This document shows positions 11,942 to 49,456 of a stretch of DNA of 64,000 bases, piece after piece. Position 1 is the stretch's first letter. Every line of letters starts with the position of its first letter. This DNA is from Nitrospirota bacterium (lineage in GTDB: Bacteria; Nitrospirota; UBA9217), in the NCBI GenBank assembly GCA_963796285.1, contig CAWCKW010000012.1:1408001-1472000 (forward strand), in the 5' to 3' direction. Made by a program: the position numbers and the translations under genes. Below the pieces are notes generated by a model. It saw only the letters and a list, made by a program, of their open reading frames with translations. It searched no databases and had not been told where the DNA came from.

Positions 11942-12110
11942 CCATGCCGGTATGGCATATCACACGTTTTGCAATCATCTGCTCGGCGGGCCCACCTCTG
12001 CGAACCTTCACGTGCATCAAGGTACTGAACCCTCTAAGTAACAACGGCCTGCTATCCATTTCAAACAACAGTAGTCCGGGCTCGTCCGGATCGATTTTCA
12101 GAACTATCCC

Positions 12111-12410
12111 CTATAACTTGAGCACGCTCTTGAAAAACCTGTTCATCATAAGACCACCGGCGGCGCCGAGCAGGGCGCCAAAACCGGCCAGGAACCCCAT
12201 CACCAGAACCAGAACCAGCGCGATCGCGAAAGAGTTCTTTCCGCATGACGGGCCGAACATCCTGGTCACGTCCTTGGCAGCCGCGTCCCACCAGGTCCCC
12301 TGGATCGAGCCGGAGAGAAAGAGGTCCATGGACAGGGCCGCACCCAGACTGGCCAGCGCGCCGATCGCCGCACCGATAATGACAGCTTTTTTGAGACCCT
12401 TGTCACTCAT
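12111..12410 (-). CDS. Small membrane protein
   Basis: 99 aa, two Gly-rich TM segments. Confidence 0.65.
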   Translation of the reverse strand: MSDKGLKKAVIIGAAIGALASLGAALSMDLFLSGSIQGTWWDAAAKDVTRMFGPSCGKNSFAIALVLVLVMGFLAGFGALLGAAGGLMMNRFFKSVLKL

Positions 12411-29496: not shown

Positions 29497-30112
29497 GGCC
29501 GCGACGCCCTCCGGACCTCGGCAATGAACTTTTTGACCTTCGCATGGTCCTTTATCCCTTTTTCCTTTTCCACGCCGCCCGCGACATCTACGGCATAAGG
29601 CTGAACAAGCTTCACTGCCTCGGCCACGTTCTCGGGCGTGAGCCCGCCGGCAAGAATGATCTTGCCGAAAGTCTTTGCCACGACTGCGAGATGCCAGTCG
29701 AAGCTCACCCCTGTTCCGCCCCGCATTCCATCGCGGTAGCTGTCGAGCAGGAAGGCGCCGACACGGTAGTGTGCCATGGCCTTGAGGCTTTCCTTGTCCT
29801 TTATCTGGAACGCCTTGATCACGCGGCCTCCGAACCGCTGGCAGAACTCCGGACTTTCGTCGCCGTGGAACTGGATCGCCTGCATGCAGGTCATGTGCTG
29901 GATCTCCCGGATCCTGTCCTCGTGCTCGTTCACGAAAATGCCGACAGGCATGACAAAGGGCGGCAGTTGGACGATGATGTCAGCCGCCTTCTGGGGATCG
30001 ATATAGCGCGGGCTCTTCTTGTAAAAGTTAAAGCCCAGCGATCTGCCCCGCACTCCGTCGCGTCCAGCGCGTCGTCCAGATTGGTAATGCCGCAGATTTT
30101 TATTTTTATCAT
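29493..30112 (-). CDS. trpF: Phosphoribosylanthranilate isomerase (frameshift near 30040)
   Basis: [26 protein letters not shown]. Confidence 0.93.
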
Positions 30113-30127
30113 AGTTATACCCCTGTT

Positions 30128-30215
30128 TCTCGCAGAGGCGCAGAGAGCGCAAGTTTTGAATCCTGAATTATAAATCTTGAATTTCTTTCTTTGCGTTCTT
30201 TGCGTCCAAGCGTGA
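30128..30215. repeat. Palindromic element CGCAGAGGCGCAGAG...CTTTGCGTTCTTTGCG
   Basis: Inverted arms with a 9-nt period, between trpC and trpF. Confidence 0.65.
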
Positions 30216-30217
30216 AA

Positions 30218-30995
30218 TTATCTTTCCAAAAGTTCCTTCACTTTCTTTCCGATATCCTTCTCCCGCATCAGGCTCTCACCCACCAGGACCGCGTCCACAC
30301 CAGCCTGACTGGAGCTTCACCACGTCGTCCCGTGTCCTGATGCCGCTCTCGCTCACCACCATACGGTCATCGGGAATGTCGTTCAGAAGATCAAGCGTCG
30401 TTTGCAGGCTCACCGTGAAGGTCGTCAGGTCCCGGTTGTTGATCCCCACGAGCGTTGCCCCCGCCCGCAAGGACCTGTCCAGTTCCTTGTAGGTATGCGA
30501 CTCGACCAGCACATCGAGGCCGAGTTGGTGTGCGATCGCGAGATAGTCCTCGATCTGCTGTTTCTCCAGGCACGCCGCGATCAGCAGAATGGCGTCCGCT
30601 CCGGCAGCCCGCGCCTCATGGATCTGATACTCGTCGATGATAAAATCCTTGCGCAGGAGCGGAAGCTTGACGGCCTTCCTGATCAGACCCAGATACTCGA
30701 GCTTGCCCTGAAAGAACTTGCTTCTCCGTCAGGACCGAGAGGCACGATGCGCCGGACTCCTCATAGATCTGTGCGATCTTGACCGGATCAAATTCTCGCG
30801 GATCACGCCTTTCGACGGTGATGCCTTCTTTACCTCGGCGATCAGCCGGATATCACCCGGGCCAATAAGCGATTTGCCGAATCCCCGGGCCGGTTCCGCA
30901 TGTGATGCCTTTGTCTTGATGTCAGGAAACGGCACTTGACGTTTCGTCTCCGCCAGTTCCTCTTTTTTATTTGCGATAATCGCGTCTAAAATCAT
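30218..30995 (-). CDS. trpC: Indole-3-glycerol-phosphate synthase (frameshifted)
   Basis: IAEVKKASPSKG, LRKDF, GINNRDL, SESGI. Confidence 0.93.
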
Positions 30996-31053
30996 AGGCA
31001 ATGCTTTTTACGAGATGTTCCTCGACCCCTGACCCTGCGTCTTGATTTTGATT

Positions 31054-32067
31054 CTAGGGCTTATTCGTAAACGCCTTCAATTGTTCCACTTTCTTCAACG
31101 CAGCACCGGAATCTATCGATGCCGCCGCTAGCCTGAGGCCTTCCTTGAAATCCATCGCCTTGCCCGAAGCAACGAGTCCTGCCGCGGCATTCAGCAGTGT
31201 TACATCGCGGCGAGAGCCTTTCTGACCATTCAATACTTCAAGGGTGATGGCGGCATTCTCTTTTGCATCCCCTCCCCTGAGATCTTCGGCCTTTCCGACG
31301 GGCAGGCCGAAATCCGATGGATGGATGAAGTAGTCCTTCACCTTCCCGTCCTTGAACTCCGAAACCCCGGTCTTGTCCGTGATCGTGATCTCGTCCAGCC
31401 CATCCATTCCGTGCACAACAAAAGCATGCGTGGCGCCGAGATTGCCGAGCACCTGAGCAAGAGGAGCCGTCAAAGCCGCCGCATACACCCCCATGATCTG
31501 CGACGTCACCATCGCCGGGTTGGTGAGCGGGCCAAGGACATTGAAAATGGTGCGGATGCCGATCTCCCGGCGCGGGCCGATCGCGTACTTCATGGCCTGG
31601 TGCATCAGGGGCGCGAACAGAAAGGCGATGCCCACCTCTTTCAGGCACTCTTCCACGCGATGTGACGGGATCTCGATATTGACTCCCAGGGCCTGGAGCA
31701 CATCGGCGCTGCCGCTCTTGCTCGAGACCGAACGGTTCCCGTGCTTGGCAACCGTAACACCCGCGCCGGCGACCACGAAGGCGACCGTTGTCGAAATATT
31801 GAACGTATGCGCCATGTCGCCGCCCGTGCCGCAGGTATCGACATGATATTTGGCATCCAGTTTGATCGGCACGGCCTTCTCGCGCATGACCCGCGCGGAG
31901 CCGGTGATCTCTTCAACGGTCTCGCCCTTCATGCGGAGCGCGGTGATGTAGGACGCGATCTGGGCGTCCGTGGCCTCGCCCTGCATGATCTCGCGCATCA
32001 CGGCCTCAGCCTCGGCCTCGGTGAGGTTTGCTTTCGTGACGACCTTTGCGATAGCTTCTTTGATCAT
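31054..32067 (-). CDS. trpD: Anthranilate phosphoribosyltransferase
   Basis: [21 protein letters not shown]. Confidence 0.97.
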
Positions 32068-32232
32068 AACGGTTCCTTAACCACAGAGGCCACAGAGAAA
32101 GTCGTTATCAAGATCAGAATTTCTCTTGTAACGCGACTTCATTAAAATCACTTATCCGTGTCTATCCGCCTGTGCCCGGCGTTTACGAGTGGTACCGCAA
32201 GTGCAGGGTATGTCCATCCATGGTTGATAACA

Positions 32233-32796
32233 TCACAGCTTCAAAAAGTTCCTGAGCAGGTCCTTCCCCGCCCCGGTCAAGATGGACTCGGGGTGGAACT
32301 GCACCCCTTCGACCTTGAACTGCCTGTGCCTCACGCCCATGATGATGCCGTCGTCGGTCCATGCCGTCACTTCGAGCACCGGCGGCAGGGTATCGCGCTT
32401 GATGATGAGCGAATGGTAGCGCGTGGCCTCAAACGGGTTCGGGAGGCCGCTGAAGATGGTCTTGTTGTCGTGATGGATCATCGAGGTCTTGCCGTGCATC
32501 AGGTAGGGCGCGCGGATCACGTCGCCGCCAAAGGCCTCGCCGATCGACTGGTGGCCGAGGCAGACGCCGAGGAGCGGTACCCTGCCCGCGAAGTGTTTGA
32601 TCACGTCGATCGAGATCCCCGCTTCTTTTGGCGTACAGGGCCCGGGCGAGATCACGATGCGCTCGGGCCTCATCTTCTCGATCTCAGGGATCGTGATCTT
32701 GTTGTTCCGGTACACCTTCAGGTCCTGCCCCAACTCGCCCAGATACTGGACCAGGTTGTAGGTGAAGGAATCGTAATTGTCGATCATCAAAAGCAT
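32233..32796 (-). CDS. trpG: Anthranilate synthase component II (glutamine amidotransferase)
   Basis: [21 protein letters not shown]. Confidence 0.95.
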
Positions 32797-32816
32797 AAAA
32801 AACCTCTAAAATCGTC

Positions 32817-32965
32817 TCTCGCAAAGGCGCAAAGTACCAAAGTTTTAAGTCTGAATGCGTCAAAATCTTTGAGAGTACCTTTGCTTTTTTCCGTGTCCAA
32901 AGCGTTTTCTCTAACATTTTTTGGTCTTGTTTTTCTTTTCTTTGCATCTTTGCGACTTTGCGCGA
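32817..32965. repeat. Palindromic element TCGCAAAGGCGCAAAG...CTTTGCGACTTTGCGCGA
   Basis: Inverted arms between trpE and trpG. Confidence 0.65.
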
Positions 32966-32997
32966 AAACCGTCTTGGCTTTTGTTTATGTCTGCGTC

Positions 32998-34486
32998 TTA
33001 ATCCAACCCCTTCTCCGCCATCTCCACGGCCCGCATCATGGCCTTGGCCTTGTTCACCGTTTCCTGATACTCGGCGGCCGGGTCGCTGTCCGCCACCACG
33101 CCGCCGCCTGCCTGGATGTAGGCAATGTTGTCCTTGATCACGAGCGTGCGGATCGTGATGCAGGTGTCCATGTTGCCCGAGAACCCGAAATATCCGACCG
33201 CGCCCGCATACGGCCCGCGCCGCGTAGGTTCAAGCTCATCGATGATCTGCATGGCGCGGATCTTGGGGGCGCCCGACACCGTGCCGGCCGGAAAACACGC
33301 CCGGATCACGTCATAGGAGTCATTGTTGACCGACAATTTTCCGCGCACGTTCGACACGATATGCATCACGTGCGAGTACCGCTCGATCACCATAAGTTCG
33401 CTCACCTTCACGCTGCCCGGTTCGCTCACCCGGCCCACGTCGTTCCTGCCGAGGTCCACGAGCATGATATGCTCGGCCCGCTCTTTCGGATCTGCAAGCA
33501 GTTCTCCGGCGAGCGCCTTGTCCTCTTCCTCCGTGGCGCCTCGTCGGCGCGTGCCCGCGATCGGCCTGAGGTCGATCGTGCCGCCCTCGAGCCTCACCAT
33601 GACCTCGGGAGACGCGCCCACAACCGTCGCGTCGCCGCAGCGGAGAAAATACATGTACGGCGACGGGTTGACCAGCCGCAGCGCGCGATAGATCTCATAG
33701 GGCTCGACATTGATCTTCGTCTGGAACCGCTGGGACGGCACGACCTGGAAGATGTCCCCTGCCTTGATGTACTCCTTTGCCTTCAGCACCGCCTGCTCGT
33801 ACTGCGGCTGGGTAAAATTGGAGGTGAGCGTGTGTCCCGTTGTCTTCGCTTTCTCTCTTGACCCCTGCCCCTTGCCCCTTGACCCCCGCTTTCAGCTTCC
33901 TGACGAGGGCGTTGATCTTCTTCGTCGCCTCATGGTAGGCCGCCTCGACGGATCTGCCCTTCACATGCGCGTTCGACACCACCTTGATCATGTGGGTGAT
34001 GTTGTCGAAGATCACGAGCGTGTCGGTGATCATGAAAAAGACATCGGGAATATCGAGACCGCTCTTCTCGCGGCCCGGCAGTTCCTCGAAAAAACGGACC
34101 ACATCGTAGCCCATGAACCCGACGGCGCCGCCGAAGAAACGCGGCAGCGACGGATCGGGCACGGGCACATACGCGGACAGGACCTTCTTGATCACCTCAA
34201 GCGGGTCGCGCTCAAAGGACCGCTTTTGAGTTTTTCCGTCCCTGATGACCTCGACGGTGCGGCCGAAGCTCCTGACCACGACCGACGGCCTGCTTCCGAG
34301 GAACGAATAACGCGCCCACTTCTCGCCGCCTTCCATGCTTTCAAGAAGGAAGGAATGGCGGCCATCGTCGATCTTCTGAAATGCGGACACCGGCGTTTCC
34401 ATGTCCGCAAGGATCTCGCGATACACGGGGATGAGGTTGCCTTTTTTCGCCTTCTTTTTGAACTCCTCAAGAGAGGGCTGGAACAT
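32998..34486 (-). CDS. trpE: Anthranilate synthase component I (frameshift near 33830)
   Basis: [43 protein letters not shown]. Confidence 0.95.
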
Positions 34487-34516
34487 AAAACTCCTTGCAA
34501 AATAAGAGGTTTGCGT

Positions 34517-34546
34517 ACTATACCAGATAATTTAAAGAAGTGTCAA
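34517..34546 (-). promoter_or_regulatory. sigma70 promoter of the trp operon
   Basis: TTGACA-18 bp-TATAGT with an extended TG, about 30 nt upstream of the trpE ATG; AAGGAG RBS. Confidence 0.65.
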
Positions 34547-34751
34547 TCAGAAAGAAATCTTGAGCGATGTTAGAGCTTGGCGAGGGAGTCCGGAGCGGTT
34601 ACTGAAGCGATTGCTGTCGATGAATACTTACAAACAATAAGGTCAGCCTACACTGAACAAGCGGTTAGGAATCACATGACATTCGATAATAGATGTGGCA
34701 ATAAGTATGCTGCGAACGCTCTTCGACGTTCACACGAAACATCGTCCTGGG

Positions 34752-36652
<1,901 letters not shown>

Positions 36653-36806
36653 TGGATAACCTCCTATCTCCTGACTACTACCTGGTGACTTTCCTCTTTT
36701 CGCGGCAGATTATAGATCATGAGGAACGATAAAGCAATATGAAGTTTGGCTTGCACCGTTTTGCCGCTCACGCAGCGCGTCTAACTCCATGCCGTATCTT
36801 ACTGCC

Positions 36807-37964
36807 CTATAGCATTGATTCCACCATCTTCCTGAAGTATCGGCAGTTATCCTCCAGGTCCGGGCCGTGCTTGAACAGCCCGCCGCCGATCAGAAATATC
36901 AGGTCCCGACCGTACGTCTCGAGCATTTCAGGGATGCGGTCAAGGCCCATGCCGCCGCCCGGTGCGGGGAAGATGGATTTAAGATGCCCCATGGGCTCGG
37001 ACGTTGCCTTGACGATCTCCCGGCACTCCTCGCGGCTAAATGAGAAGCGTCCGCCGAAGTTCGGGAAGATGGTCGCATCCGCGCCGGCCAGGCGCGCAAG
37101 CTGGCCGAAAATAACGCCGTGGGACATCCCATTGGCACTCGTCACAAAACTCCCTTGCAAAGCCGGATGCGTAAGGATCGGCAGCGCGATCGAGTCGTCA
37201 TCCGCCAGCTCCCGCATCAGATCAAAGCCGATCAATCCCGGCGCAACCATCAGACCGCCTGCTCCCGCGTCCTTTGCCATCCTGCCCCTCTTGACGACCT
37301 CGCTATGAGGAGCGGTAATATTTGCGACATAGATCGTCCGATGGCCGGTTTCCTTGGCCGCCCGCTGTACTGCCTCGGCACATCGCTTTACCCGTTCCTC
37401 GAAAGGCGAACAGCCTTGATTGGTCAGGCCGTGGTCGTCCTTGATGATGTCCATGCCTCCCCGGGCGAGCTGGTATGCCAGGTCTGCAAGCTCCTGTGAC
37501 GAAAGACCCATGGGTTTGATCGCCGAAGAAAGCAGCGGCCGCTTCGGTATGTTCAGGAGGCTTCTTAGCCCCTCCCTGCCAAAGCGCGGCCCTTTGAAGC
37601 GGCGCAGAAGCGATTCAGGCAGATCAAGATGTTCGACGCGGATGCCCGGCTTGATGCTGCTGTTGCCGAACACGACATTCAGGAACTGCGTCAGTTCGCC
37701 AGCAGCGATCTCAACTGCATAGCTGATGACTGCCCTGAAATGTTTACGATCAAGCGGTTCAAACAGTTCGATCCGGCCAAAGACATGGTCCCTGATGATC
37801 CCTTCCGGCACTTCGTCCGCGGGGAATTCCACCGTCTGTTCGATACAGATGTCCTCTGCCCTGGCACGCGCTTCCTTCTCACTGCCGGTAAGGCGGTATG
37901 TCACGGAGAAGCGGTCGCCGGAAAAAAGAGCGGCCTGGGTGCAGGTCTTCTGGATAATAGACAT
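36807..37964 (-). CDS. RuBisCO-like protein (form IV), R. rubrum/DeepYkr-like; probable methylthio-/deoxy-ribulose-1-P isomerase
   Basis: CIEQTVE, FGN, IKPMG, IIKDDHGL (E204 to H), HPA, FPNFGGRF, PAPGGG, IGGG. Confidence 0.88.
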   Translation of the reverse strand: MSIIQKTCTQAALFSGDRFSVTYRLTGSEKEARARAEDICIEQTVEFPADEVPEGIIRDHVFGRIELFEPLDRKHFRAVISYAVEIAAGELTQFLNVVFGNSSIKPGIRVEHLDLPESLLRRFKGPRFGREGLRSLLNIPKRPLLSSAIKPMGLSSQELADLAYQLARGGMDIIKDDHGLTNQGCSPFEERVKRCAEAVQRAAKETGHRTIYVANITAPHSEVVKRGRMAKDAGAGGLMVAPGLIGFDLMRELADDDSIALPILTHPALQGSFVTSANGMSHGVIFGQLARLAGADATIFPNFGGRFSFSREECREIVKATSEPMGHLKSIFPAPGGGMGLDRIPEMLETYGRDLIFLIGGGLFKHGPDLEDNCRYFRKMVESML

Positions 37965-38033
37965 CGGGAGAAGATGTGCTCCTTTGATATTATTGGACGA
38001 ATACAGTTAAAGAACCAGAACTAAACCAGTTCT

Positions 38034-38112
38034 AACCGCCGAGACGCGGAGGCGCAGAGAAAATCTTTCTTTCAATCTGCATTTCTCCCGCAATTCTCCG
38101 CGCCTCAGCGGT
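38034..38112. repeat. Palindromic element ACCGCCGAGACGCGGAG...CTCCGCGCCTCAGCGGT
   Basis: Inverted arms between the SDR and RLP genes. Confidence 0.65.
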
Positions 38113-38121
38113 AAATTATAA

Positions 38122-39642
38122 CTACCAGTCAATGGGGAAATAATCCTTGAGAAATTTTCCGCACCAGTGCCTCCCTGTTAAGATCCCGTCAAAGAAGGGA
38201 TCGCAGACCCTGGCAGCTCCATCCACAATATCCAGGGGAGGTTGGAAATCATGTACTGTTTGCTTGTAATGGGAAAGCTCCGCGGGATCTTCATCAGTGA
38301 CCCAGCCCGTATCAACGGCATTCATAAAGATACCGTCTTTGGCAAGGTCTTCCGCCGAGGTATGGGTCATCATATTCAGGGCCGCTTTCGCCATATTCGT
38401 ATGAGGATGACGCGCGTCTTTTTTGAATCTGAAAAACTTTCCTTCCATGGCAGTTACGTTGACAATATGCTTTTGGCCGGTATGAGCACGCCGCATCAGC
38501 GATGCCAATCTATTGCACAGCACAAAGGGAGCCACGGCATTCACCAGCTGTACTTCAAGCATTTCCGTTGTCGGGATCTCTCCCAACCGCAAACGCCAGC
38601 TGTTTGTCTTGCGCAGATCCACCTGTTGAAGGTCGGCGTCCAGTTGCCCTGTGGGGAATATCTCCTCAGCCGCGAGCGAGCTGTCGTGACTGTACGGGAT
38701 CTGTGACAGCTGGGCCGATTCGCGTAAACCTATGCCGGGGTTCTGATTATGCCATGCAACAGGAAGGTCAGAGTTTTCGTTCTGGCAAATAGATTGGATT
38801 TGCTTCTTGCACTCCTCATGGTCAGCGAGAAGCCTCTGCGCCTCCCTGGACAATCCGCTGAAACCGACTTTTTCATGTTCCATCAGATGGGCATAAAAAC
38901 CCGGAGGCCGCCTCACCGTCTGAGCGGCATTATTGATCAGGATATCAAGACGCCCGTATCTCTGTTCCAGATAACTGGTAAATAGCTCAACACTGGGGAT
39001 ATGCCTCAGATCAAGACCGTGAATATGCAGCCTGTCTCCCCATACAGCATAGCCCTCTTCTTTGGAATATCTGATAGCCGCGTCAACGGGAAAACGTGTC
39101 GTGGCGATCACCGTTGCCCCGGCGCGCAGCAACATCAGGGTCGCCTGGTAGCCGATCTTAAGCCGTGCGCCGGTGATGAATGCAACCTGCCCCTGAAGCG
39201 ATGCGGACTGAAACCGTTTCCGGTAATTCAGGTCGCCGCATTTCTTGCACATCGTGTCATAGAAATGATGCAGCTGGGTATACTCTTCTTTGCATATATA
39301 GCAATTGCGCGGCGAATCCAGTTTTTCACTCTTTTGTTTGGCCTCAGATGAATGACCTTCGATCTGCTCCGGCGCAACAAAGGTTGCATCAGCACGCGCA
39401 CTCCTGATCCCCGTGCTGTTTCTGGCGCGCCGATTATTCTCAAGAGTTGACAGCCTCTTTGTTTTGCTTGCCGTCTTGTTTCTCTTTTTCCGTTCCGCTC
39501 TGTCGGGACGGGATATATCGCCGGTCGCTTTCAGAAGGGCGATTCGCTGTTCTTCTGGAAGGTTAGCAAGCTGGTCCGTATCTTTTACGAGATTTGCGAG
39601 AAGGGCAATGCAATTTTCAATTTCTTCGGAAGAGTGTTTCAT
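38122..39642 (-). CDS. Atypical long SDR oxidoreductase with N-terminal CxxC...CxxC
   Basis: [37 protein letters not shown]. Confidence 0.82.
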
Positions 39643-39707
39643 TAGACAATATTCTCTATTCTCATTTATAAGGTTTCTCATTCCGCACGCAAAAATCCGA
39701 AATGGCT

Positions 39708-41699
39708 CTAAAGCGCCTCAGCCTTTGCCATGCTGTGCACCGCTGTAATATGCGCTTCTGCAAGCTCGTCTTCGGAGACATTGAACCGCTGACCAATCAT
39801 TGCTTCAACTTCCCTGATCAACGAAAGCGCATCCATCTTGTGTTCCTTCAGGAGATACTGTTTGCTCGCCCCGTGGCTGAAGGTATCCTGGAGGCCGATC
39901 CTGACGAGTTTCTTCGCAATGCCTGCTTCCGCCATCTTCTCGGCGATGATGGAACCCAGGCCGCCGACGATGGTGTGGTTCTCCATGGTGATCACGCCAA
40001 AGCGTGACTTGCGCTATCGCATCGAGAACAGTCTGGTCATTGAATGGTTTTAAGTGTTGAGATATGCATATGCTGGATAGACAGGCCGCGCTTCTTGAGC
40101 ACCTGTATTGCCCGCATGGCCTCCTCGGTCATGATGCCGCTTGACAGGACCGTTATGTCGTTCCCTTCGGACAACACCCGCGCCTTGCCGAATTTCATCG
40201 GGCTGTCGAAGAGCCGCGGGATCTCGCCCCGGAGCATTCTCACATACACCGGCCCGTTGATTTTTTCGATCACTTCGAGGACGGATCTCTACCTCGGTCG
40301 CGTCCCCGCACTCGAGCACGGTCATGTTCGGCAAGGCGCGCATGACCGCGATGTCCTCGATGGCCTGATGGGTCGCCCCGCCCGGCGTGGTAATGCCCGG
40401 AAGGAAGCCGATCATCCGGACCGGCAGATTGGGATACGCGACGGACATGGCGATCTGGTCATACGCGCGGCGGTAGATAAAGACCGCGAAGGTATGCACA
40501 AAGGGAATGAACCCTTCCCGCGCAAGGCCCGCGGCAAAGCTCAGCATGTTCTGCTCGGCAATGCCCATGGACAGGAAGCGGTCGGGATAGGTGATCGCGG
40601 AACAGGTCGATCTCCGTGGAGCTCGTGAGGTCGGCGGAGAGCACCAGCACTTTTGGTTTGTCCGCTGCCCATCGTACGAGGTTCTTTGCATGGACCCTGG
40701 TAACGATCTCAGGACCTGATGGAGGCTTTTGCGGGGGCCTTCTCCTTCTTTTGTCTCAGGCGGACACTCCCTGCCGCATAGCTCCGCATAGGCGGCCACA
40801 TAGCGGCCCTTTTCCTCTTCGCTCGTAAAGCGGACATAGTGCATCTTCGGGGCGCGGGCTTCAGGACGTCGAGTCCCCGTGCCGCATCGGTGTCGCACAG
40901 CACAACAACGGGCCGTCCATCAGGAGTAAGCGATCCGGCATCTGCCAGACGCTTGATGTCGTGCCCATTCACCCGGAGCACCCGGCAGCCGAAGGATTCA
41001 AGCCTCTTGTCCAGCGGTTCGATGTCCATGACCGTGCACATCTTGCCGTCGCACTGGAACCCGTTCACATCAACGTAGATGATCACGTTGTCGAGCATGT
41101 GGATGCGAAAGGGCCTGGAGCGCCTCCCAGGTCTGGCCGATCTGGAACTCGCCATCGGACATGAAGATGAACACCCTGCCCTTCTCTTCCTTTCGTTTTC
41201 TTGCCATGGCAATGCCGGCTGCCTGGCTGATGCCCTGTCCCAGAGAACCGGTCATGGTCTCCATGCCCGGCGAGTGCTCCGCGCCGATCATCTCGACGGA
41301 GCTTCCATCCTTATTGAACTGGAGAAGCCCTTCCTCGGCCATGCGGCCGGTCTCGATCAGGGTCGCGTACAGGACCAGGGCGTACTGGGCCGGAGAGAGG
41401 AAGAAGCGGTCGTGGTCCGGGCCCGGGCCGTTAAATGAAGCGCCGGTAAAGTAATCCGGGTTGTCCGGGCCAGGCACGCCGGGAAAGGGCCGGGGCACGA
41501 GCGGAGTCTCGATCGTGCCGAGGTCCATGACCTTCACATAGAGCGTTGCCAGGATCTCGGCTGATGAACAGGCCTGGGAGAGATATCCTCCGTTGTTCCT
41601 GATCGTATGCTCCAGCACGCGACGCCGGATGCCTGCTGCCACGCGCCTGACCTCGTCCTGCCAGGTCGATGATTCCTTTTTTTTATCTGCTGACTTCAT
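39708..41699 (-). CDS. Transketolase-family ThDP enzyme; N- and C-terminal halves possibly fused; multiple frameshifts
   Basis: [20 protein letters not shown]...N, GHD; SADL, GIAEQNM, GGATHQ, YVR, ENH..GGLG. No clear separate start for the C-half. Confidence 0.85.
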
Positions 41700-41774
41700 T
41701 GCTCTCACAAATGCTCCTTATCATATAATTCTAACCCGGACAAGCCGGACTAAAATGAAAAAAGCTAAAAGGCG

Positions 41775-41892
41775 TCTCGCGCAAAGACGCAAAGCCGCAA
41801 AGAAAGGCTAAATCATGGTTTTTAAACTAGGCCTGAAGCTTTCCTTTGCGTCTTTGCGGCTCAGTGTGGCCCTCTTCTTGGCCATTGCGCGA
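41775..41892. repeat. Palindromic element TCGCGCAAAGACGCAAAG...CTTTGCGTCTTTGCG
   Basis: Same family as 30128, 32817 and 47844. Confidence 0.65.
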
Positions 41893-41902
41893 AAAAAGGT
41901 TT

Positions 41903-43012
41903 CTATCTTTCGTCTTTTAAGACCACGCTCCTCAGCTGCTCAGCCGCGTCCTCGGGGCAGATCGTATTCACAAAGAGGCCGGACCCCAGTTCAAATCCCG
42001 TGGGAATGCTCGTGCGCGGGCAGATCTCGATATGCCAGTGAAACGCCGGCGCGCTCGCCGCGTACTCAGCGCCGTGCGGCAGCGAATGGACAAAATAGTT
42101 GTACTGCGCGCCGCCGAGCACGGCATTGAGCCGCGCCATGGTCCTCCTGAAGAGGCCCGCCAGATCGACAAGGTCCTCAGAGGTCGCATCGAGAAAATCA
42201 GCCTGGTGAGCAAGCGGCAGGATATGCACCTCCCACTCGTAGCGGCTCGCAAAGGGTTTTATGGCAATGAACCGGCTGCTGCGCTCGATGACGAACTGTC
42301 CCACGTTGATCTTCCGGCGGAGTGCGCCCGACTCCCGGTCGTACAGGGTCGCTTCAAAGGTGAGCGCCTCATCGATGAGGCTGCAAAAAACGCATTGGCG
42401 AGCGGTCCGGTAAAACACCGTGCTGTGGCGGACCTCCGCCAGCACATTGCGGGGCACCACGGGCATGGCGATCATCTGGCTGTGGGTGTGGCTGATGCTG
42501 GCACCCGCGGCAGGACCGAAGTTTTTGAACACGAGCACATACTGCAGCCGGTCGTCAGTATGATAGAGCTGCTCCATCCGGCCGCGATAGGTCGACAGGA
42601 GCAGTGCAAGGTGTTCTTCCGCCATTTCATGGACCCTGATGCCGTGCGAAGCATGGTCGATGATCACTTCGTGCCGTCCGTAACCGTCGATCGTCTGCTG
42701 AAGACCAAAGGCAAAATTCGGGTTCTCCCGGTCGTCCCCGAGCACGGGATAGAGGTTCTCCACGATGCGGAGCTGCCAGACCCCCTCCGCAGGGACCTGC
42801 GCGATCAACGCGGGGGTCATCGCCTCATTGCCGCGGCAGAATGGGCACGTGGCCACGTGCGGCCGTTCGTCGTACGGCGCCAGGGCTTCCTCTTTTTTGG
42901 GGCGCATGCTGCGCGCCGTGGCCACGAGCACGGACTCGCTCGGTACGATCGGATTGATCCGTATCTCGCGTATGATCTTTGCTCCCGGCATTTGGACTGG
43001 CTGCGCACTCAT
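41903..43012 (-). CDS. GalT-family (HIT) nucleotidyltransferase
   Basis: CPFC.GNE, NLYP, GRHEVII, FKN.G..AGASISHTHSQ, HWHIEI, GFELG. Confidence 0.88.
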   Translation of the reverse strand: MSAQPVQMPGAKIIREIRINPIVPSESVLVATARSMRPKKEEALAPYDERPHVATCPFCRGNEAMTPALIAQVPAEGVWQLRIVENLYPVLGDDRENPNFAFGLQQTIDGYGRHEVIIDHASHGIRVHEMAEEHLALLLSTYRGRMEQLYHTDDRLQYVLVFKNFGPAAGASISHTHSQMIAMPVVPRNVLAEVRHSTVFYRTARQCVFCSLIDEALTFEATLYDRESGALRRKINVGQFVIERSSRFIAIKPFASRYEWEVHILPLAHQADFLDATSEDLVDLAGLFRRTMARLNAVLGGAQYNYFVHSLPHGAEYAASAPAFHWHIEICPRTSIPTGFELGSGLFVNTICPEDAAEQLRSVVLKDER

Positions 43013-43098
43013 TCACATTCTCCAGGACCCCAGGGAGTCGTTGTTGTTTTCCAGCGCAAGATACCCGGTCCGATACCGCATTCGCATGACCAGGGCAG

Positions 43099-43473
43099 TT
43101 AAACGCTAATCGCGACGTCCCGATGAACGCTTTCCGGAGAAAAAGCAGGCGTACAAACGGCAATATACTCCGCACCGTCGGGGCCGGGTGTGCTGTACTG
43201 CACCCATTCGCCCCTGCCGGCGATAATGGCTTCACCAGCTTGTACTTCATGAACACCCGACCTCGTCATAACTCGCAGCATGCCTTTCAGGACAAGCGTG
43301 TATTCATCGAATTCAGGCGTCTGGCCCGGCTCGCTCCACTCTGCGGGGCTTTTCATCCGCGCGATGCTTACTGCTTCGGTCTTCGAATTTACCCGGCCGA
43401 TGAACTCCTCGATCGTTTTTGGTTTGTTACCAACAGCCCGTATCACCGTCGGCTTTGTGAAATGGGTCGTCAT
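43099..43473 (-). CDS. EutQ-like cupin
   Basis: IEEFIGRVN, EPGQTPEFDEYTLVL, WVQYSTP, AVC.PAF. Confidence 0.8.
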   Translation of the reverse strand: MTTHFTKPTVIRAVGNKPKTIEEFIGRVNSKTEAVSIARMKSPAEWSEPGQTPEFDEYTLVLKGMLRVMTRSGVHEVQAGEAIIAGRGEWVQYSTPGPDGAEYIAVCTPAFSPESVHRDVAISV

Positions 43474-43804
43474 GGGGTCCTCCGAATGAACGCTGCGGTT
43501 CCATCGTCTTTGTGAATGAAGCGTAGAATATCGAGATCGACATTCAGGGTGCCGAGGGTGCACTATCTGTCCCCGCGTTTGAGAAAAGCGTACTATAACT
43601 GAACAAATTAGCCAAGATTTTTGATGAGCTACCGCTGAGGTTGTTATTGCTCTGCACCGATAAAAGCTCAATGACAGGTAATACTGATATTTATTGCAGA
43701 TTATGAAACACGCTACCTACTCATCGTATATGCCTGACCGGACCTGCTCCATGCCTGATAAAGGGAAAAGTGCAAGCTCGCGCACTTGCAGATCCCACGA
43801 CATC

Positions 43805-44455
43805 CTATTTCCACACCCGGTGCTTCAGTCCCGCGATATCCGCCATCCGCAGCTCTGCCGCATGCGTCTTACCCTGCCTGATGAGATCAATGACGTCGGA
43901 GTCCACGATCGCCTGAAACACCTGCCTCCGTTTGCTCTCATCAGGGACCTCTTCAAGGACCCGCTTACGGATCGCCGACAGCTTCTCGAGGAAGATCTCA
44001 TACTCAGTGCCATACCTCTGTTCGATATCCTGCCTGATCTTCTTCGAAAGTGCCGGGCTTGCGCCGCTCGTGGAAATCGCGATCAGGAGATCTCCCCGCT
44101 CCACTACCGAGGGCACTATGAAGCTGCTCTCCTCGGGAGGCACGGCCACGTTCACCAGCACATGTTTTTTCCTGCATGCCGACGCCACCAGGGTGTTCAC
44201 CTCGGCCGAATCGCGTCGCGGCGATCACGAGGAACTGCGCCGGAGAGGTCCTTTTCATCATACTTTTTCTGGAGATGGGTGATTTTGCCGGAGTCGGAGA
44301 GCTCGTGCAGTTTCGGAGTGAGCGCGGGGCTATATGATCGTTACCACAGCCCCTGCTTCAAGAAGCGCGAGCGCCTTGCGCTCGGCCACGGCGCCGCCGC
44401 CGATGACCAGGCAGGGCCGCTCGCGCAGATCCAGATACGCGGGGTAATATTTCAT
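43805..44455 (-). CDS. Precorrin-2 dehydrogenase / sirohydrochlorin ferrochelatase (frameshifted)
   Basis: [24 protein letters not shown]; [15 protein letters not shown]. Confidence 0.88.
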
Positions 44456-45179
44456 GGCTTTTGCAGTTTATGAATGTGGGAAATGGCCGTTTCCTTCATG
44501 GCCGGATATTTCTGCGCAAGCGTTTCGAACCTGGCGCGCGCCAGGTCCCGCTCGCCGAGCTTCATATAGGAAAGTCCCGCGTAGTAGAGCGCGTCTTTTT
44601 CCGAGGGCGTGCCGGGATAATCATGCAACAGCTTCTCGCACCTTCCCGCGGCCGCCTTATATGACCCCTTCTTGTAGATAGAAATGCGCAACGTAGAGCT
44701 CGTACTCCGCGATCCAGTCCGTGCAGATGGAAATATATTTCCTCGCCTGTTCTTCATAGCCGCTCTTTGGATACTTGTCGAGGAGCTTCCGCATCTCTCT
44801 GATCACGGCATGGGCCGGCGCGGGGTCCCGGTCGATGGTCAAGAGTTCCTTGTAGCTGCACATCGCGATCTGGTACTGGGCGTAGGCCGCGTCTTTGTGC
44901 ACCGGATGGTAGTTCAGAAAGGCCTGATACTCGACCAGCGCCTCGCTGTATTTCTCATCGCCGTAGTACGTGTCGGCGATGCGAAGCATCAGGACAGCGT
45001 CATAGCTCTTGTCCGGCGACTTTTCCTGCATCTGCTGGTAGCCCTTGCGCGCCTTTTCGTATGCCTCATTCCGCATGTTCTCTTCGGCTTCTTTGAACAC
45101 CGCCACCGCGTCATAGGGCGGCGGCTTCGACGCATCCGGCAAGGAGGGAAAGGATCACTATGAAGAAGATTTTTTTCAT
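44452..45179 (-). CDS. bamD: Outer membrane assembly lipoprotein BamD (frameshifted)
   Basis: Lipobox LAGC from ATG 45179; TPRs, [25 protein letters not shown]. Confidence 0.85.
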
Positions 45180-45308
45180 AAGAAGGGGAAATTCCGGATA
45201 ACGAGCACCAAATCGCCAACAAGCTCAGAGAAGAATCAAAGACCAATTTTAAACTCCGGGTCATCGAAATTGATAATTGAATTTAGGGATCGAAATTCGA
45301 ATTAAGTA

Positions 45309-45395
45309 TGGTGCCGAAGGGGGGACTCGAACCCCCACAGGATTGCTCCCACTGCGCCCTGAACGCAGCGCGTCTACCAGTTCCACCACTTCGGC
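45309..45395 (-). tRNA. tRNA-Leu(CAG)
   Basis: GCCGAAG/CTTCGGC acceptor stem with ACCA, D-loop TGGTAG, anticodon arm CTGCG-TTCAGGG-CGCAG, long variable arm, GTTCGAGTC. Confidence 0.97.
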
Positions 45396-45404
45396 ACGGG
45401 TGAC

Positions 45405-45433
45405 ATGATAAGGTGAAAGCCCTCGATTGTCAA
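45405..45433 (-). promoter_or_regulatory. sigma70 promoter of tRNA-Leu (probably also bamD-sirC)
   Basis: TTGACA-17 bp-TATCAT. Confidence 0.7.
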
Positions 45434-45544
45434 GGATGTTTTTATTTCTGTGACTGCAAAATTGCTCCGCGCATACTCATCTGTTAATGAATATCCGGGG
45501 ATGCTTTTTTGATGTCAGACGATCGACCAGACGCATTTATCCTG

Positions 45545-45610
45545 GTAGTCGCAGGCTTTAGCCTGAGTTTATACTGTATTGAAAACCCGCAAACTAAAGT
45601 TTGCGGCTAC
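45545..45610. repeat. GTAG-type REP doublet
   Basis: GTAGTCGC...GCGGCTAC with internal palindromes CAGGCT-TT-AGCCTG and CCGCAAACT-AA-AGTTTGCGG. Confidence 0.7.
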
Positions 45611-45676
45611 CTGTATGAATCTGGATTTTTGCAAAACCTCGCGTGCATACGTTATCGAATTTACCAGCCGACGTAC

Positions 45677-46900
45677 TTAGATAACGATCCCCCCTGCCAC
45701 CGGGTGTCCCGCGTGCTCCAGCACGAACCTGCCCATCTCGGGGATCTCTGCAAAGGCGTCCACAAGGACCGGCCTGTTTAGTTTGATCAGGACATCAGCG
45801 ATCTCCGCTGCCTTGATCTTGCGAGCGTCCTGCTCGATCACTTCGATGGTAGCCGGGTCGAAGCGCCGGTAGATCCTCTCGATAACGCCCTGTGCCTCCT
45901 GCGTGGCGCACCGAAAGGTGAGCGGAATGCCAAGTTCATAGTCTTTATCAATGAGCCAGAAGATGGTGGCGCGGACCGCGTCGGTTACCGCCGGCGTCGG
46001 TTTGTCGACAAGGACATCGCCCCGCTTCACAGGAGGACCTTGAAAGCGAATGCCTATGCAGTGCCCTGCTTCGGCCTGGGGCATGTCATTCTGCATGAAT
46101 TTTTTTACCTCGACAACGATGCCGGCCGCCTTTTGAGGGAAAACATGGACGTTCTGCCCTCTCCTGATTGTTCCCGACTCGACACGTCCTACAACAACGG
46201 ATTGTCCGTCGACGTGATAGATATCCTGCACCGGGAAACGAAGGTCCTTGTCCTCTGCCGTGACAAGGGAGAAGCTGTCCAGCGCCTCCAGGACAGTGGG
46301 GCCGTCGAACCAGGATAACTGTTCGGATCTTGTTGCCACATTCTCCCCCCGCTGCGCGGAAATGGGAAGAACATGGGTGGGCGTGATCTTCAGCTGGCCC
46401 AGCGCGGTCTCTATCTCGCCCTTGATGGCACGGAAGCGGGCTTCGGAATAGGCAACGGCATCCATCTTGTTGACAAGGACGGCTATCTGTTTGAACCCGA
46501 GCAACCCCAGGATGAAGCAGTGACGCAGCGTCTGCTCCCTGATGCCTTCGGTGATGTCGACCAGGAGCAGCGCGGCCTCGGCCTGGGAAGAACCGGTGAT
46601 CATGTTCTTGAGAAACTCCTTATGCCCCGGCGCGTCGATGATGACATACCTTCGCTTGGCCGTGCGGAAGAAGGTATGGGAGATATCGATGGTGATGCCC
46701 CTGTCGCGCTCCTCTTCGAGCTGGTCCATGACATAGGCAAATTCCATCACCTTGCCCTGGGCTTCCGACGCCTGCCGGAGGGCCTCCATCCTGTCCGGCG
46801 GCAGACAGCCGGTATCATAGAACAGCCGGCCGACGAGAGTGCTCTTGCCGTGGTCCACGTGGCCGGTAATGACAATGTGCATGGATCGTTCGTCAGTCAT
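45677..46900 (-). CDS. cysN: Sulfate adenylyltransferase GTPase subunit (no APS-kinase domain)
   Basis: GHVDHGKS, GITID, DAPGH, NKMD; adjacent to cysD. Confidence 0.85.
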   Translation of the reverse strand: MTDERSMHIVITGHVDHGKSTLVGRLFYDTGCLPPDRMEALRQASEAQGKVMEFAYVMDQLEEERDRGITIDISHTFFRTAKRRYVIIDAPGHKEFLKNMITGSSQAEAALLLVDITEGIREQTLRHCFILGLLGFKQIAVLVNKMDAVAYSEARFRAIKGEIETALGQLKITPTHVLPISAQRGENVATRSEQLSWFDGPTVLEALDSFSLVTAEDKDLRFPVQDIYHVDGQSVVVGRVESGTIRRGQNVHVFPQKAAGIVVEVKKFMQNDMPQAEAGHCIGIRFQGPPVKRGDVLVDKPTPAVTDAVRATIFWLIDKDYELGIPLTFRCATQEAQGVIERIYRRFDPATIEVIEQDARKIKAAEIADVLIKLNRPVLVDAFAEIPEMGRFVLEHAGHPVAGGIVI

Positions 46901-46909
46901 TGGTTCTCC

Positions 46910-47713
46910 TTACATGTATCCCAGTGAACGGAGCTTCTGCATGGTGTACACGTCTTCCTTGTCCTGTGCCCGCCCCGCGCGCTCCGAGGTGCTGGACGTT
47001 TCCAGTTCAATGATGATATCGTCCACGCTGGCGGCGTCGGAGTCAATGGGGCTGCAGCACGGCATGCAGCCGATGCTGCGGTACCGCTTCCCCCCCTTGC
47101 TCAGATACAGGTCGACGATGGGGATATTCTCTTGCTTCATGTACTTCCAGATGTCCAGCTCCGTCATGTGCAGCAGGGGGTGCACACGGACGTGATTGTC
47201 CTCGGCAGTTGTCGTCCGGTACTGCTCCCAGAGCTCCGCAGGCTGGTCCTTGTAGTTCCAGGAAAAATTCTCGTCCCGAGGCGAGAAAACGCGCTCCTTT
47301 GCCCGGATGCCGTGCTCATCCCGACGTATGCCGACAAGGACGGCCTGGAACCCTTCCCGTGCGATAATACTCTTGAGCGCGTTCGTTTTGAGTTCGTTGC
47401 AGCAGTCGAGCTTGGCGCCCGTGTTCGGCCCCATGCATTTGGCAATCTGCTCCTCGTTCTTTCCAACGATGAGGTTCAAGCCCCACTGCTTTGCATACTC
47501 CTCCCGAAAGCGATAGATCTCCGGAAACTTGTACGACGTATCTATGTGGATGACCGGGAATGGGACCTTCCCGAAAAAGGCCTTGCGGCACAACCAGAGC
47601 AGCGTGGTCGAGTCCTTGCCGATGGACCAGAGCATGGCCATGTTCTTGAAACGCGCATAGGCTTCTCGTATGATATAGATGCTTCTGTTCTCCAGATCGG
47701 TCAAATGATCCAT
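46910..47713 (-). CDS. cysD: Sulfate adenylyltransferase subunit 2
   Basis: WSIGKDS, GIRRDE..RAKERVFS, RVHPL, YRSIGC, ERAGR. Confidence 0.93.
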   Translation of the reverse strand: MDHLTDLENRSIYIIREAYARFKNMAMLWSIGKDSTTLLWLCRKAFFGKVPFPVIHIDTSYKFPEIYRFREEYAKQWGLNLIVGKNEEQIAKCMGPNTGAKLDCCNELKTNALKSIIAREGFQAVLVGIRRDEHGIRAKERVFSPRDENFSWNYKDQPAELWEQYRTTTAEDNHVRVHPLLHMTELDIWKYMKQENIPIVDLYLSKGGKRYRSIGCMPCCSPIDSDAASVDDIIIELETSSTSERAGRAQDKEDVYTMQKLRSLGYM

Positions 47714-47906
47714 ACGGTATCCTTTCACATCAGGCGATTACGCCTCTACCATCGACAGTACATTGTCAATCTTTTCTATGCTGAAAGACAAGACATTGTC
47801 ACATAAAGAGAGAAATTCAAGATTTAAAATTCAAGATGCAAAACTTGGCGTCCTTTGCGTCTTTGCGAGAGACGCCTTTGACACTGCCTTGTTATTTTTC
47901 CCCCGA

Positions 47907-49272
47907 CTAGGACGCAGTCATCCGCTCAAGCAGAATGCGTGCCAGTCCCTCGATATGCATCCGTTCATTGGGCTGCTGCGCCTCCGGCAGGATGCAGTGG
48001 GCATCTGCGCGGGTATGCATGCCCGCAAAATTGCCTTTGCCGAAGATCTCCTGCTTCTTGAGCGACCCCTTCAGGTCGTATCCGTCATGCGGCAGACAGA
48101 CCAGATCAGGCGCGCGGTCACCCGCCGGTCCCGGATACAGGTCGACGCCATCATAGACGGCCTTGATCACTGAATTTCCTTTTTCGTCTTTAAACGAATT
48201 CCAGCGCTGCTCGTATCCGGGAGAGAACTTCGTTCTTCGCCGATGCCTTCACAGACCCCCGGGGATACTTGTTCTCAAAGTTGACGTAGATCCGCGCGGG
48301 GTCCATGGCAAAGGCCTGCGTCCCCGTGTTGATCTGCTCATAATACTCACGGACGGGATCGAGCGTGAGCAGCCCCTGCTGCTTGAGCCAGGCATTGATA
48401 TATACTTCCTGTTTGAGCACGGTGAACCCGTGGTCCGACAACGTCAGGAAGAGTCCCTTGCCATCCGTGATCTCCATGAACCGCTCATAGAGCCTCCCGA
48501 TGATGCTGTCCATCTGTTGATAAAAGGAGCGGAACACGTCGTAGCGGGGGTGCTTCGCGTCCTGCGCCGCGTCATAGAAAAAATGATGCAGCCGGTCCGT
48601 CTCGGTGATGACGCCGATGAAGAGGTCCCAGGGCTCGTGCGTCAGAAAGTGCTCGAACGCCTCTGCCCGCTTTTCCAGCGCCAGGAACAGTTCCCGAAAG
48701 AACGCGTCCTGCTGGTCCACGGCCTTGTTGGAATCTACGTCGGGAAGATAGCCCATGGAACTCAGATAGGTGTATGCCGTCTCGGGATAGGTGCCTTTCC
48801 GGAAGTCGGGGCACACGAATCCCGCTGTCAGGATCCCGTTCAGAGGCCGCGCCGGATAGGTCTGGGGGATGTTCAGGACAATGGACCGCAGGGGGCTGCG
48901 CAATCTTGTCCGGAACTGTTCGTACAGCGTCGAGGTCTTGTTGTTCACGGTCTGCCCGATCATGTCCCAGATCGTAGGGGCCTGCACACTTCCGGAATTC
49001 GGGAACATAAGCTGGTATGTCCCCGGACGGAGGTCCATGAACCCGTAGATCCCGTGTTCGCCCGGATTTACGCCGGTCATAAAGGACGTCCACGACGTGG
49101 AAGAGACGTCTGGTATGGAAGCGTCCATCTGGTGCAGGCGAAATCCGGCTGACAGGATCTTTTGCACGTTCGGCAGGATCCCTTCCCGCAGATAGTCATT
49201 GAGCAGTGAATAGGGTACACCGTCAAGGCCGATGACACAGCATCTCTGGTTGTTGTTGACCGGTACGCTCAT
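47907..49272 (-). CDS. Alkaline-phosphatase-superfamily enzyme (type I phosphodiesterase-like; frameshift near 48190)
   Basis: IGLDG, WTSFMTGVNPGEHGIYGF, TDRLHH, SDHGF, APDL, GMH. Confidence 0.85.
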
Positions 49273-49310
49273 CTGTTCTCCTAACCCGGACAATCCGGAA
49301 CCAAACCTTT

Positions 49311-49418
49311 TTTGCCACAGAGTACACGGAGGTCACAGAGGGGAAATGAACGGAAAATATTTTAGCTATGAAATTACTTTCAGCCTTTCTCCGCGTGCTT
49401 TGTGACCTTTGTGGCAAA
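49311..49418. repeat. Palindromic element TTTGCCACAGAG...CTTTGTGGCAAA
   Basis: Inverted arms with 9-nt sub-repeats. Confidence 0.65.
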
Positions 49419-49456
49419 ATATTCTTGCCTTTTGAGTAGAATTTGTTCTTAACTTA

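Follow-up and report, generated by a model that had tools for sequence, protein, structure and literature searches.

5′-Methylthioadenosine (MTA) as well as 5′-deoxyadenosine are unavoidable and inhibitory by-products of S-adenosylmethionine (SAM) chemistry. In Rhodospirillum rubrum and Rhodopseudomonas palustris, the MTA-isoprenoid shunt comprises MtnP, MtnA, a RuBisCO-like protein (RLP) of the DeepYkr type (Rru_A1998/RPA2169), and a cupin (Rru_A2000/RPA2170), and it delivers 1-deoxyxylulose-5-phosphate (DXP) and methanethiol-glutathione. According to passages of PMC4958253, Rru_A1998 is the RLP that isomerizes 5-methylthioribulose-1-phosphate (MTRu-1P) and Rru_A2000 is the sulfurylase of 1-methylthioxylulose-5-phosphate (MTXu-5P). 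The dihydroxyacetone phosphate (DHAP) shunt for MTA and 5′-deoxyadenosine uses MtnK or MtnP, MtnA, and a class II aldolase (Ald2/DrdA), and its C-C cleavage yields a triose phosphate and a C2 aldehyde, as stated in sections of PMC5893883 and PMC6079011. Here, we analyzed a locus in a 64,000-nucleotide stretch of DNA from a Nitrospirota bacterium of the lineage UBA9217 (GenBank assembly GCA_963796285.1, contig CAWCKW010000012.1, positions 1,408,001 to 1,472,000 of the forward strand; the whole stretch is called the window), in which an RLP gene stands near a gene for a divergent transketolase (TK). Coordinates without prefix are window positions.

We favor, with somewhat better than even confidence, the reading that this RLP and its dedicated, divergent TK form a two-gene downstream branch of MTA and 5′-deoxyadenosine salvage or catabolism, and that the TK gene is broken here by consensus errors. 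In the proposed route, MtnP in this organism, or MtnK together with an ATP-binding cassette (ABC) importer in other phyla, would act with MtnA to give 5-methylthio- or 5-deoxyribulose-1-phosphate, which the RLP would isomerize to 1-methylthio- or 1-deoxyxylulose-5-phosphate; the isomerase step is suggested by orthology with RLPs that partner the methylsulfurylase cupin of the R. rubrum type. The TK would replace this cupin: the ylide of its thiamine diphosphate (ThDP) would attack C2 and the C2-C3 bond would be cleaved, giving glyceraldehyde-3-phosphate (G3P) and a ThDP-bound C2 unit. The latter would leave as (methylthio)acetaldehyde or acetaldehyde, be transferred, or be processed further. 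Thus, the expected products are G3P and a C2 unit and differ from the DXP and methanethiol-glutathione of the MTA-isoprenoid shunt. With the DHAP shunt the proposed route shares the sequence of importer, MtnK-type kinase, MtnA isomerase, and a subsequent C-C cleaving step, but it would employ two enzymes, with the RLP isomerase acting ahead of a ThDP-dependent one, and G3P would be released in place of DHAP; also, the genome studied here has no detectable class II aldolase.

The RLP gene (36807-37964, minus strand) encodes 385 amino acids in an intact frame, matches Pfam RuBisCO_large (PF00016) with 111 bits (cut-off 30.1), and represents the sole RuBisCO-family match in the genome. Its translation carries the motifs KDDH, HPA, and FPNFGGRF, as the preliminary description of this DNA had reported. 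The best match in the PDB was structure 3qfw (E 5e-75, RLP residues 18-378), which we take to be RLP1 of R. palustris and which has KDDH, HPA, and FPN(F/Y)GGRF in common with the window protein. Part of PMC13454268 lists 3qfw as an RLP structure. In the MtnW structures 4nas and 2oek, KDDH is replaced by KDDE and the loops differ. All NCBIfam scores of the RLP fell below the cut-offs, namely 235 versus 409 for the best match, the MtnW model PRK09549, 185 versus 514 for a further MtnW model, 161 versus 497 for form III, and 92 versus 700 for OiaX. The protein therefore possesses the RuBisCO large-subunit domain without belonging to the bona fide RuBisCO, MtnW, or OiaX equivalogs, and motifs and scores agree with the earlier assignment to a KDDH type linked to MTRu-1P isomerization. 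From these sequence features, it can be regarded as a putative 1,3-isomerase of 5-methylthioribulose-1-phosphate and 5-deoxyribulose-1-phosphate of the DeepYkr type. In its motifs (KDDH/HPA/FPNxGGRF, as in 3qfw) it resembles the RLP of the MTA-isoprenoid shunt.

The TK gene (39708-41708, minus strand) is expected to encode a fused N+C form of ~665 amino acids. Pfam and NCBIfam TK domains were recognized on its frame pieces, among them Transketolase_N and Transket_pyr within 40050-41708. The subfamily has the ThDP-binding, Pyr, and C-terminal domains, and a full-length orthologue aligns to the TK models over positions 69-624 of 627. Fused N+C proteins were seen only in the Nitrospirota relatives of the window, while separate N and C subunits are found outside. 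The best solved relatives are the split TK of Carboxydothermus hydrogenoformans (6yaj/6yak, 227 bits) and human TKT (3mos/4kxu, 216 bits), whereas DXS structures matched with at most 121 bits. With these split or short-type TKs the RLP-linked protein shares the domain order, the ThDP-activating Glu, the metal-binding Asp/Asn, H263, H481, and the distal phosphate-binding Arg/Arg/Ser. However, it scored only 370.9 against the cut-off of 488 of the best TK model, NF004559, and 191 against 466 for the second-best family, the DXS model TIGR00204, and no curated NCBIfam family covers it; a look-up in the ESM Atlas returned generic "transketolase family" clusters only. DXS is comparable in that it uses ThDP to form or cleave the C2-C3 bond of the 1-deoxyxylulose-5-phosphate skeleton, but the domains resemble each other chiefly in the Pyr and C-terminal parts, and a DXS of 511 bits is encoded separately in the genome. 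Also, a separate housekeeping TK is present in the same genome (624 amino acids, 891.9 versus 488), which adjoins a transaldolase-like gene, as well as a canonical split TK. The latter was found in two near-identical copies (G000:C13:246656-248540 and G000:C7:13406-15296), which may reflect a duplication or redundant contigs (estimated contamination 5%).

The active-site columns of the RLP-linked TK were mapped through an alignment with human TK and the genome's own two canonical TK paralogues; residues are given in yeast numbering, with the roles they have in canonical TKs. The canonical set of residues is not preserved. H30 is replaced by Y in 58/60 sequences, the Lys of SKGH by P in 58/59, and the Gly of GDG by Ser (SDG) in 58/58; H69 is Q in 38 and H in 20 sequences, the H103 loop is displaced (MIGAEH), and H469 and D477 have become L and G, respectively, each in 62/62. 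Retained are H263, E418, H481, S386, R528, and R359, the last one as R or K. The two canonical paralogues kept H, K, H, G, H, and D at the replaced sites. Several replaced residues lie where a canonical TK reads the C1 and C3 hydroxyl groups of the donor, and this pattern would fit a 1-substituted donor. The replacements and the score below the NCBIfam cut-off bear out the earlier proposal of a dedicated, re-tuned TK subfamily.

The association of the two genes was analyzed at two phylogenetic ranges. Among 41 related genomes, the RLP (at least 58% identity) was present in 18 and the TK (at least 62% identity) in the identical 18, without a discordant genome, and all remaining TK matches had at most 42% identity. 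This co-occurrence extended to genomes in which the genes were on separate contigs or 20 kb from each other. With one genome per species, a pattern scan yielded at least 600 matching stretches with at least 525 RLP relatives confirmed by tblastn, of which the best 80 loci, each with an RLP at least 57% identical to that of the window, were examined. A TK was present in 56 of these 80, and in 48 of the 69 loci having at least 2.1 kb of upstream sequence it was co-oriented with the RLP and ended upstream of it within 1 kb. The TK-linked loci belonged to Bacillota (21), Chloroflexota (16), Nitrospirota (10), and Planctomycetota (3), with single loci from Calditrichota, Synergistota, Spirochaetota, Vulcanimicrobiota, and Promethearchaeota (an Asgard archaeon) and one unassigned locus, and thus represent no fewer than nine phyla. 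Chance falls far short of explaining the RLP-TK association. The preliminary description had proposed a neighborhood survey for such a co-occurrence; of the genomic findings it had named as speaking against its proposal, namely grouping of the RLP with apiose/tetronate decarboxylase or YkrW enolase clades or a lack of TK-RLP co-occurrence, neither was observed.

The conserved unit consists of TK and RLP only. In the 96 other loci inspected, i.e., the loci of 16 relatives and the best 80, an SDR gene beside the pair was seen once (L014, none of the best 80), and the cupin and GalT-like genes once (L045, the closest relative). The candidate five-gene operon was therefore rejected, since the SDR, GalT-like, and cupin genes are each conserved with the pair in 1/96 loci. 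In five Nitrospirota loci (L035, L036, L039, L040, and L041), the gap between TK and RLP, which is the slot of the window SDR, holds a gene of the AhpD/CMD family. Four Nitrospirota loci (L032, L035, L037, and L044) have a GAPDH gene behind the RLP, a weak hint of G3P as product.

For the operon context, neighboring open reading frames of the 80 loci were clustered and representatives were scanned with profiles. MtnK (469 bits, cut-off 275) and/or MtnA (472 bits, cut-off 271) were found in 11/56 TK loci and a ribose-type ABC permease in 7/56, usually in the order solute-binding protein, ATPase, permease, MtnK, MtnA, TK-N, TK-C, RLP. Examples are Clostridium ljungdahlii (L079), Clostridium drakei (L085), Chloroflexus (L098), and the Asgard archaeon (L082). 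In these other phyla the pair is thus set in mtnK-mtnA operons, in line with the salvage branch suggested before. In 8/80 loci, the RLP was accompanied instead by a 145-amino-acid cupin matching Rru_A2000 (PDB 3jzv, E 3e-45 for the cupin of L063), and four of these eight show the order cupin, O-acetylhomoserine sulfhydrylase, CoA-binding protein, RLP. The same RLP orthogroup thus adjoins close Rru_A2000 homologues and an O-acetylhomoserine sulfhydrylase, a likeness to the MTA-isoprenoid shunt; unlike in that shunt, a divergent TK stands in the place of the cupin in 56/80 loci. TK and a cupin of the Rru_A2000 type occurred together in none of the 80 loci, in agreement with the earlier idea that a TK stands in for the methylsulfurylase; the RLPs beside TK and cupin are equally similar.

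In a quick IQ-TREE tree of the 80 RLP rows, TK-linked and cupin-linked RLPs interleave, with six parsimony changes, of which at least two are forced by starred branches; one starred Syntrophomonadaceae/Pelotomaculum clade contains two TK-linked and three cupin-linked rows. The 56 TK-linked and eight cupin-linked RLPs share 104 conserved positions, including K150, KDDH at 175-178, H266-P267, PNxGGRF at 301-307, and the GG pairs, and there is no group-specific residue. The simplest reading of these sequences is that the RLP would catalyze one and the same reaction whether its partner is a TK or a cupin, and that its product would be used by either the one or the other. Aldehyde and alcohol dehydrogenases, phosphotransacetylase, and acetate kinase did not recur among the neighbor clusters present in at least three loci, which suggests that the fate of the C2 unit is not encoded nearby. 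A gene for a family-1 solute-binding protein (SBP_bac_1, ~380 amino acids) was noticed in L064, L077, L086, L087, L093, L098, and L106, directly after the RLP in most of these loci, which are mostly from Chloroflexota. Also, SAM riboswitches are located just downstream of the TK-RLP operon in C. drakei (L085:9239-9351 and 12101-12212) and C. ljungdahlii (L079:12402-12512). They control the next genes and not the operon itself (eight operon loci were scanned, with the operon leaders outside the stretches).

The upstream steps are encoded in the genome of the window (96% complete). MtnA (C12:1344348-1345337, 438 bits, cut-off 279) and MtnP (C12:1355259-1355979, 285.6 bits, cut-off 274.85) lie on the same contig ahead of the window, at distances of ~63 and ~52 kb from its start, respectively; the preliminary description had correctly noted that neither gene is in the window and had proposed to look for them elsewhere. 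The presence of MtnP and MtnA is a further likeness to the MTA-isoprenoid shunt. MtnN gave only a weak match, and the best own match for O-acetylhomoserine sulfhydrylase reached 167+121 bits against a cut-off of 495. In the genome, we found no MtnK, no class II aldolase (PF00596; MtnB or Ald2), and, with the L063 cupin as query, no cupin of the Rru_A2000 type. The gene set of the DHAP shunt, i.e., a class II aldolase with MtnA and MtnP or MtnK, is therefore incomplete, with MtnA and MtnP present and PF00596 not found. Since neither the aldolase nor the cupin was found, RLP and TK are the only downstream route detected in this genome.

Intact TK orthologues of relatives consist of one open frame of 661-673 amino acids that abuts the RLP. 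The window has no such continuous reading frame, contrary to the earlier treatment of the TK as a single one: compared with the intact TK of L016, the gene falls into nine frame segments, and DNA alignments with L014, L016, and L045 located seven 1-nt insertions (near 41104, 40753, 40725, 40593, 40286, 40054, and 40013) and one 1-nt deletion (near 40859). None of the eight indels is in a homopolymer run, and their net sum of +6 brings the last segment back into the starting frame. Read in the correct frame, the segments have 67-98% identity to the TK of L016, a level comparable to the 83% of the RLP to the same genome, and thus show no excess of substitutions. Logan contigs from four public metagenome runs of three studies (X1-X4) were aligned to 36800-43700. 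They omit one letter at 40012, 40054, 40287, 40594, 40724, and 41103 and carry an additional T behind 40859, thereby contradicting the window at seven of the eight sites; the eighth falls within a variable linker of ambiguous alignment. The indel rows listed for these contigs (12 of 21) all fall inside the TK, and at 41103, 40859, and 40287 the entire covering depth in X1-X3 disagrees with it. Other genes of the assembly are frame-split as well, namely a TrpE-like gene (33695-34486), ParE (34730-36652), DXS (C12:1511781-1513629), and MtnP, and broken copies of TK or RLP occur in assemblies of few contigs (G001, G004, and G013; 20-30 contigs), while many-contig assemblies of relatives have intact genes. 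The assembly thus seems to carry many single-base indel errors, and gene calls in this genome need care.

We consider it quite likely that the breaks in the TK are assembly consensus errors, and hence the RLP-TK pathway is probably intact in the organism. The other explanation, a module that is real elsewhere combined with a genuine TK pseudogene and a dead or decaying branch here, appears rather unlikely to us. It would account for the clustering of eight 1-nt indels in 2 kb, unusual for random error since the flanking RLP, SDR, and GalT-like genes have none, and for the contig depth, only part of which contradicts the window at 40594, 40054, and 40012; in run X1, the letter at 40594 is left out by 12.3 of 28.7 of depth. 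Both points weigh against consensus errors as the cause. Moreover, module decay seems to occur, because G013, a 100%-complete relative, has in-frame stops in both TK and RLP, and MtnA was not found in it; these stops (G013:C15:1032373-1035518) may mean that the two genes decayed jointly or that the assembly is poor. A pseudogene is, however, hard to reconcile with the absence of the indels at seven of the eight sites in contigs of four runs, with the restored frame and the lack of excess substitutions, and with the like damage to DXS, MtnP, ParE, and the TrpE-like gene and the occurrence of broken TK and RLP copies in few-contig assemblies, with intact genes in the many-contig ones.

With respect to function, the genes for the MtnP or MtnK and MtnA steps were found, and gene content, linkage, and residue pattern were observed directly, while from them we infer which substrates are used, in which order the two steps run, and which C2 product results. 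Several results weigh against an MTA and 5′-deoxyadenosine branch formed by RLP and TK. Neither mtnK nor mtnA is seen in the fetched stretch of 45/56 TK loci. MtnA and MtnP are each present in 37/41 related genomes, with or without RLP and TK, so that the upstream steps are common and the downstream branch varies. A class II aldolase occurs in 6/18 RLP+TK genomes versus 15/23 of the others (related genomes that are kin and not independent), and in L087 it even shares one operon with the pair (L087:1789-9107; MtnK, MtnA, class II aldolase, binding protein, TK-N, TK-C, RLP). A DHAP-shunt-type aldolase and the TK-RLP branch can consequently coexist, and a strict alternative between them is only partly borne out. 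The identity between the RLP and 3qfw is only moderate (361 aligned residues, 256 bits) and lower than within the TK-linked clade, whose members reach 57% or more to the window RLP. Finally, D477 to G and H469 to L are unexplained by a simple model of a 1-substituted donor of the xylulose-5-phosphate (Xu5P) type; in canonical TKs, the Asp at 477 binds the C4 hydroxyl group of the donor and H469 is a phosphate-binding His.

Part of these observations could also be explained if RLP and TK degraded another phosphate of a pentose or deoxy-sugar that has nothing to do with SAM by-products, or if the TK acted before the RLP or directly on MTRu-1P, which we judge as distinctly unlikely. A function of RLPs in the degradation of other sugars is known, for example, from the apiose and tetronate pathways, the operons start with ribose-type sugar importers, the Asp that reads the C4 hydroxyl of Xu5P-type donors is missing, and the scarcity of mtnK and mtnA in the TK loci points in the same direction; the gene order, with TK preceding RLP, would suit an earlier action of the TK. 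However, kinase and isomerase, where present, are far above the curated MtnK and MtnA cut-offs, the same RLP orthogroup partners the MTXu-5P sulfurylase of the Rru_A2000 type together with O-acetylhomoserine sulfhydrylase, the OiaX score is far too low, and the TK keeps the distal phosphate-binding Arg, Arg, and Ser. That the TK is an ordinary pentose-phosphate transketolase merely adjoining the RLP is very improbable: its Pfam domains are standard and its look-alikes in the ESM Atlas generic, but the genome has the separate 624-amino-acid TK and the split TK, the RLP-linked enzyme stays below the cut-off and has invariant replacements in its active site, and in relatives it is restricted to the 18/18 genomes having the RLP. 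A housekeeping role was rejected on these grounds. Hardly more credible is an MtnW-type 2,3-diketo-5-methylthiopentyl-1-phosphate enolase of classical methionine salvage, as the best NCBIfam match of the RLP could indicate. The score is below the cut-off, KDDH is found in place of the KDDE of the MtnW structures, and the genome has no detectable class II aldolase/MtnB dehydratase for making the enolase substrate; MtnW and, by its score, OiaX were rejected as assignments.

A doubtful but more specific version of the branch would have the RLP-linked TK as a ThDP-dependent lyase instead of a transferase, closing an anaerobic, glutathione-independent methionine salvage. After release of G3P from 1-methylthioxylulose-5-phosphate, the (methylthio)hydroxyethyl-ThDP enamine would expel methanethiolate and give acetyl-ThDP, much as phosphoketolase expels water from its ThDP enamine, and acetyl-ThDP would be converted to acetyl-phosphate or acetate. 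One enzyme would thus supply a triose phosphate, a C2 unit rich in energy, and free methanethiol from which methionine could be made again; from 5-deoxyribose, the products would be G3P and acetaldehyde, or simply DXP. The changes H30 to Y, H469 to L, D477 to G, and the SDG motif would then be the signature of such chemistry.

A full-text literature search, with supplements and the 2012 primary papers outside its scope, revealed no link between an RLP and a transketolase in MTA or 5′-deoxyadenosine metabolism. Within the passages reached by term searches, no such link was found in PMC6079011, PMC6302742, PMC5893883, PMC13454268, PMC4958253, PMC10663253, and PMC13474568, and the 2026 review among them (PMC13474568) discusses, in these passages, MTXu-5P cleavage by the cupin only. 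The RLP-TK pairing points to an undescribed route of SAM by-product recycling, a variant of the known salvage routes. If this is true, a third route consisting of an RLP isomerase and a dedicated TK would exist, and a function would be available for a large unassigned RLP group with at least 525 relatives as well as for a TK subfamily unnamed by curated models. It would also explain how many strict anaerobes, among them acetogens such as C. ljungdahlii, Chloroflexota, Planctomycetota, and Nitrospirota, handle these by-products, and it would provide an example from nature of a transketolase with a remodelled active site.

In the window, RLP, SDR, TK, GalT/HIT-like, and cupin genes are all co-oriented on the minus strand (36807-43476), and the Pfam and NCBIfam assignments agree with the five-gene run described before. 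The SDR oxidoreductase (38122-39681, minus strand, 519 amino acids, intact) matches Pfam adh_short and adh_short_C2 and has a Cys-rich N-terminal extension of ~160 amino acids with two CxxC pairs, which no family covers, and an insert of ~110 amino acids between the two halves of the Rossmann domain. The GalT/HIT-family nucleotidyltransferase-like protein (41903-43012, minus strand, 369 amino acids, intact) matches Pfam DUF4921, DUF4931_N, GalP_UDP_transf, and HIT and scores below the cut-off of the NCBIfam GalT models. The small cupin (43099-43476, minus strand) has only a weak Cupin_2 match (20.1 bits, cut-off 27.2), assigned to 43099-43671. It lacks the HxH metal motif, and its only structural match is EutQ (E 0.45), just as the preliminary description had it, EutQ-like and without His metal ligands. 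Having no similarity to 3jzv either, it was ruled out as a methylsulfurylase of the Rru_A2000 type. Between the GalT-like gene and the TK, a terminator-like hairpin with a T-rich tail was detected (41772-41790, minus strand) by a consensus scan only, which found 19 sites versus 9 expected in the region; it could be a possible transcription-unit boundary separating the two genes. Contigs of other populations diverge from the window in this gap (41780-41895) and in the gap between RLP and SDR (38033-38068). The pathway role considered before for the SDR, GalT-like, and cupin genes was not upheld, because they are local, non-conserved neighbors and the hairpin is situated between GalT and TK.

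The search for RNA elements at window positions 30000-50000 returned tRNA only, and no SAM riboswitch or other RNA element. Four Radical_SAM domain matches were located in the window at 10877-11377 (plus strand), 52949-53440, 60082-60483, and 61398-61913 (all minus strand), which confirms the number of radical SAM genes previously counted as a source of 5′-deoxyadenosine. With 48 matches genome-wide and ~1 expected in the window by length, their clustering is mild, and none of the four genes adjoins the RLP-TK pair. ParE is located downstream of the RLP, and upstream a tRNA, CysN, and CysD were noted, the last two named from their translations only; CysN and CysD lie on the same strand, 2-4 kb upstream of the GalT-like/cupin pair.

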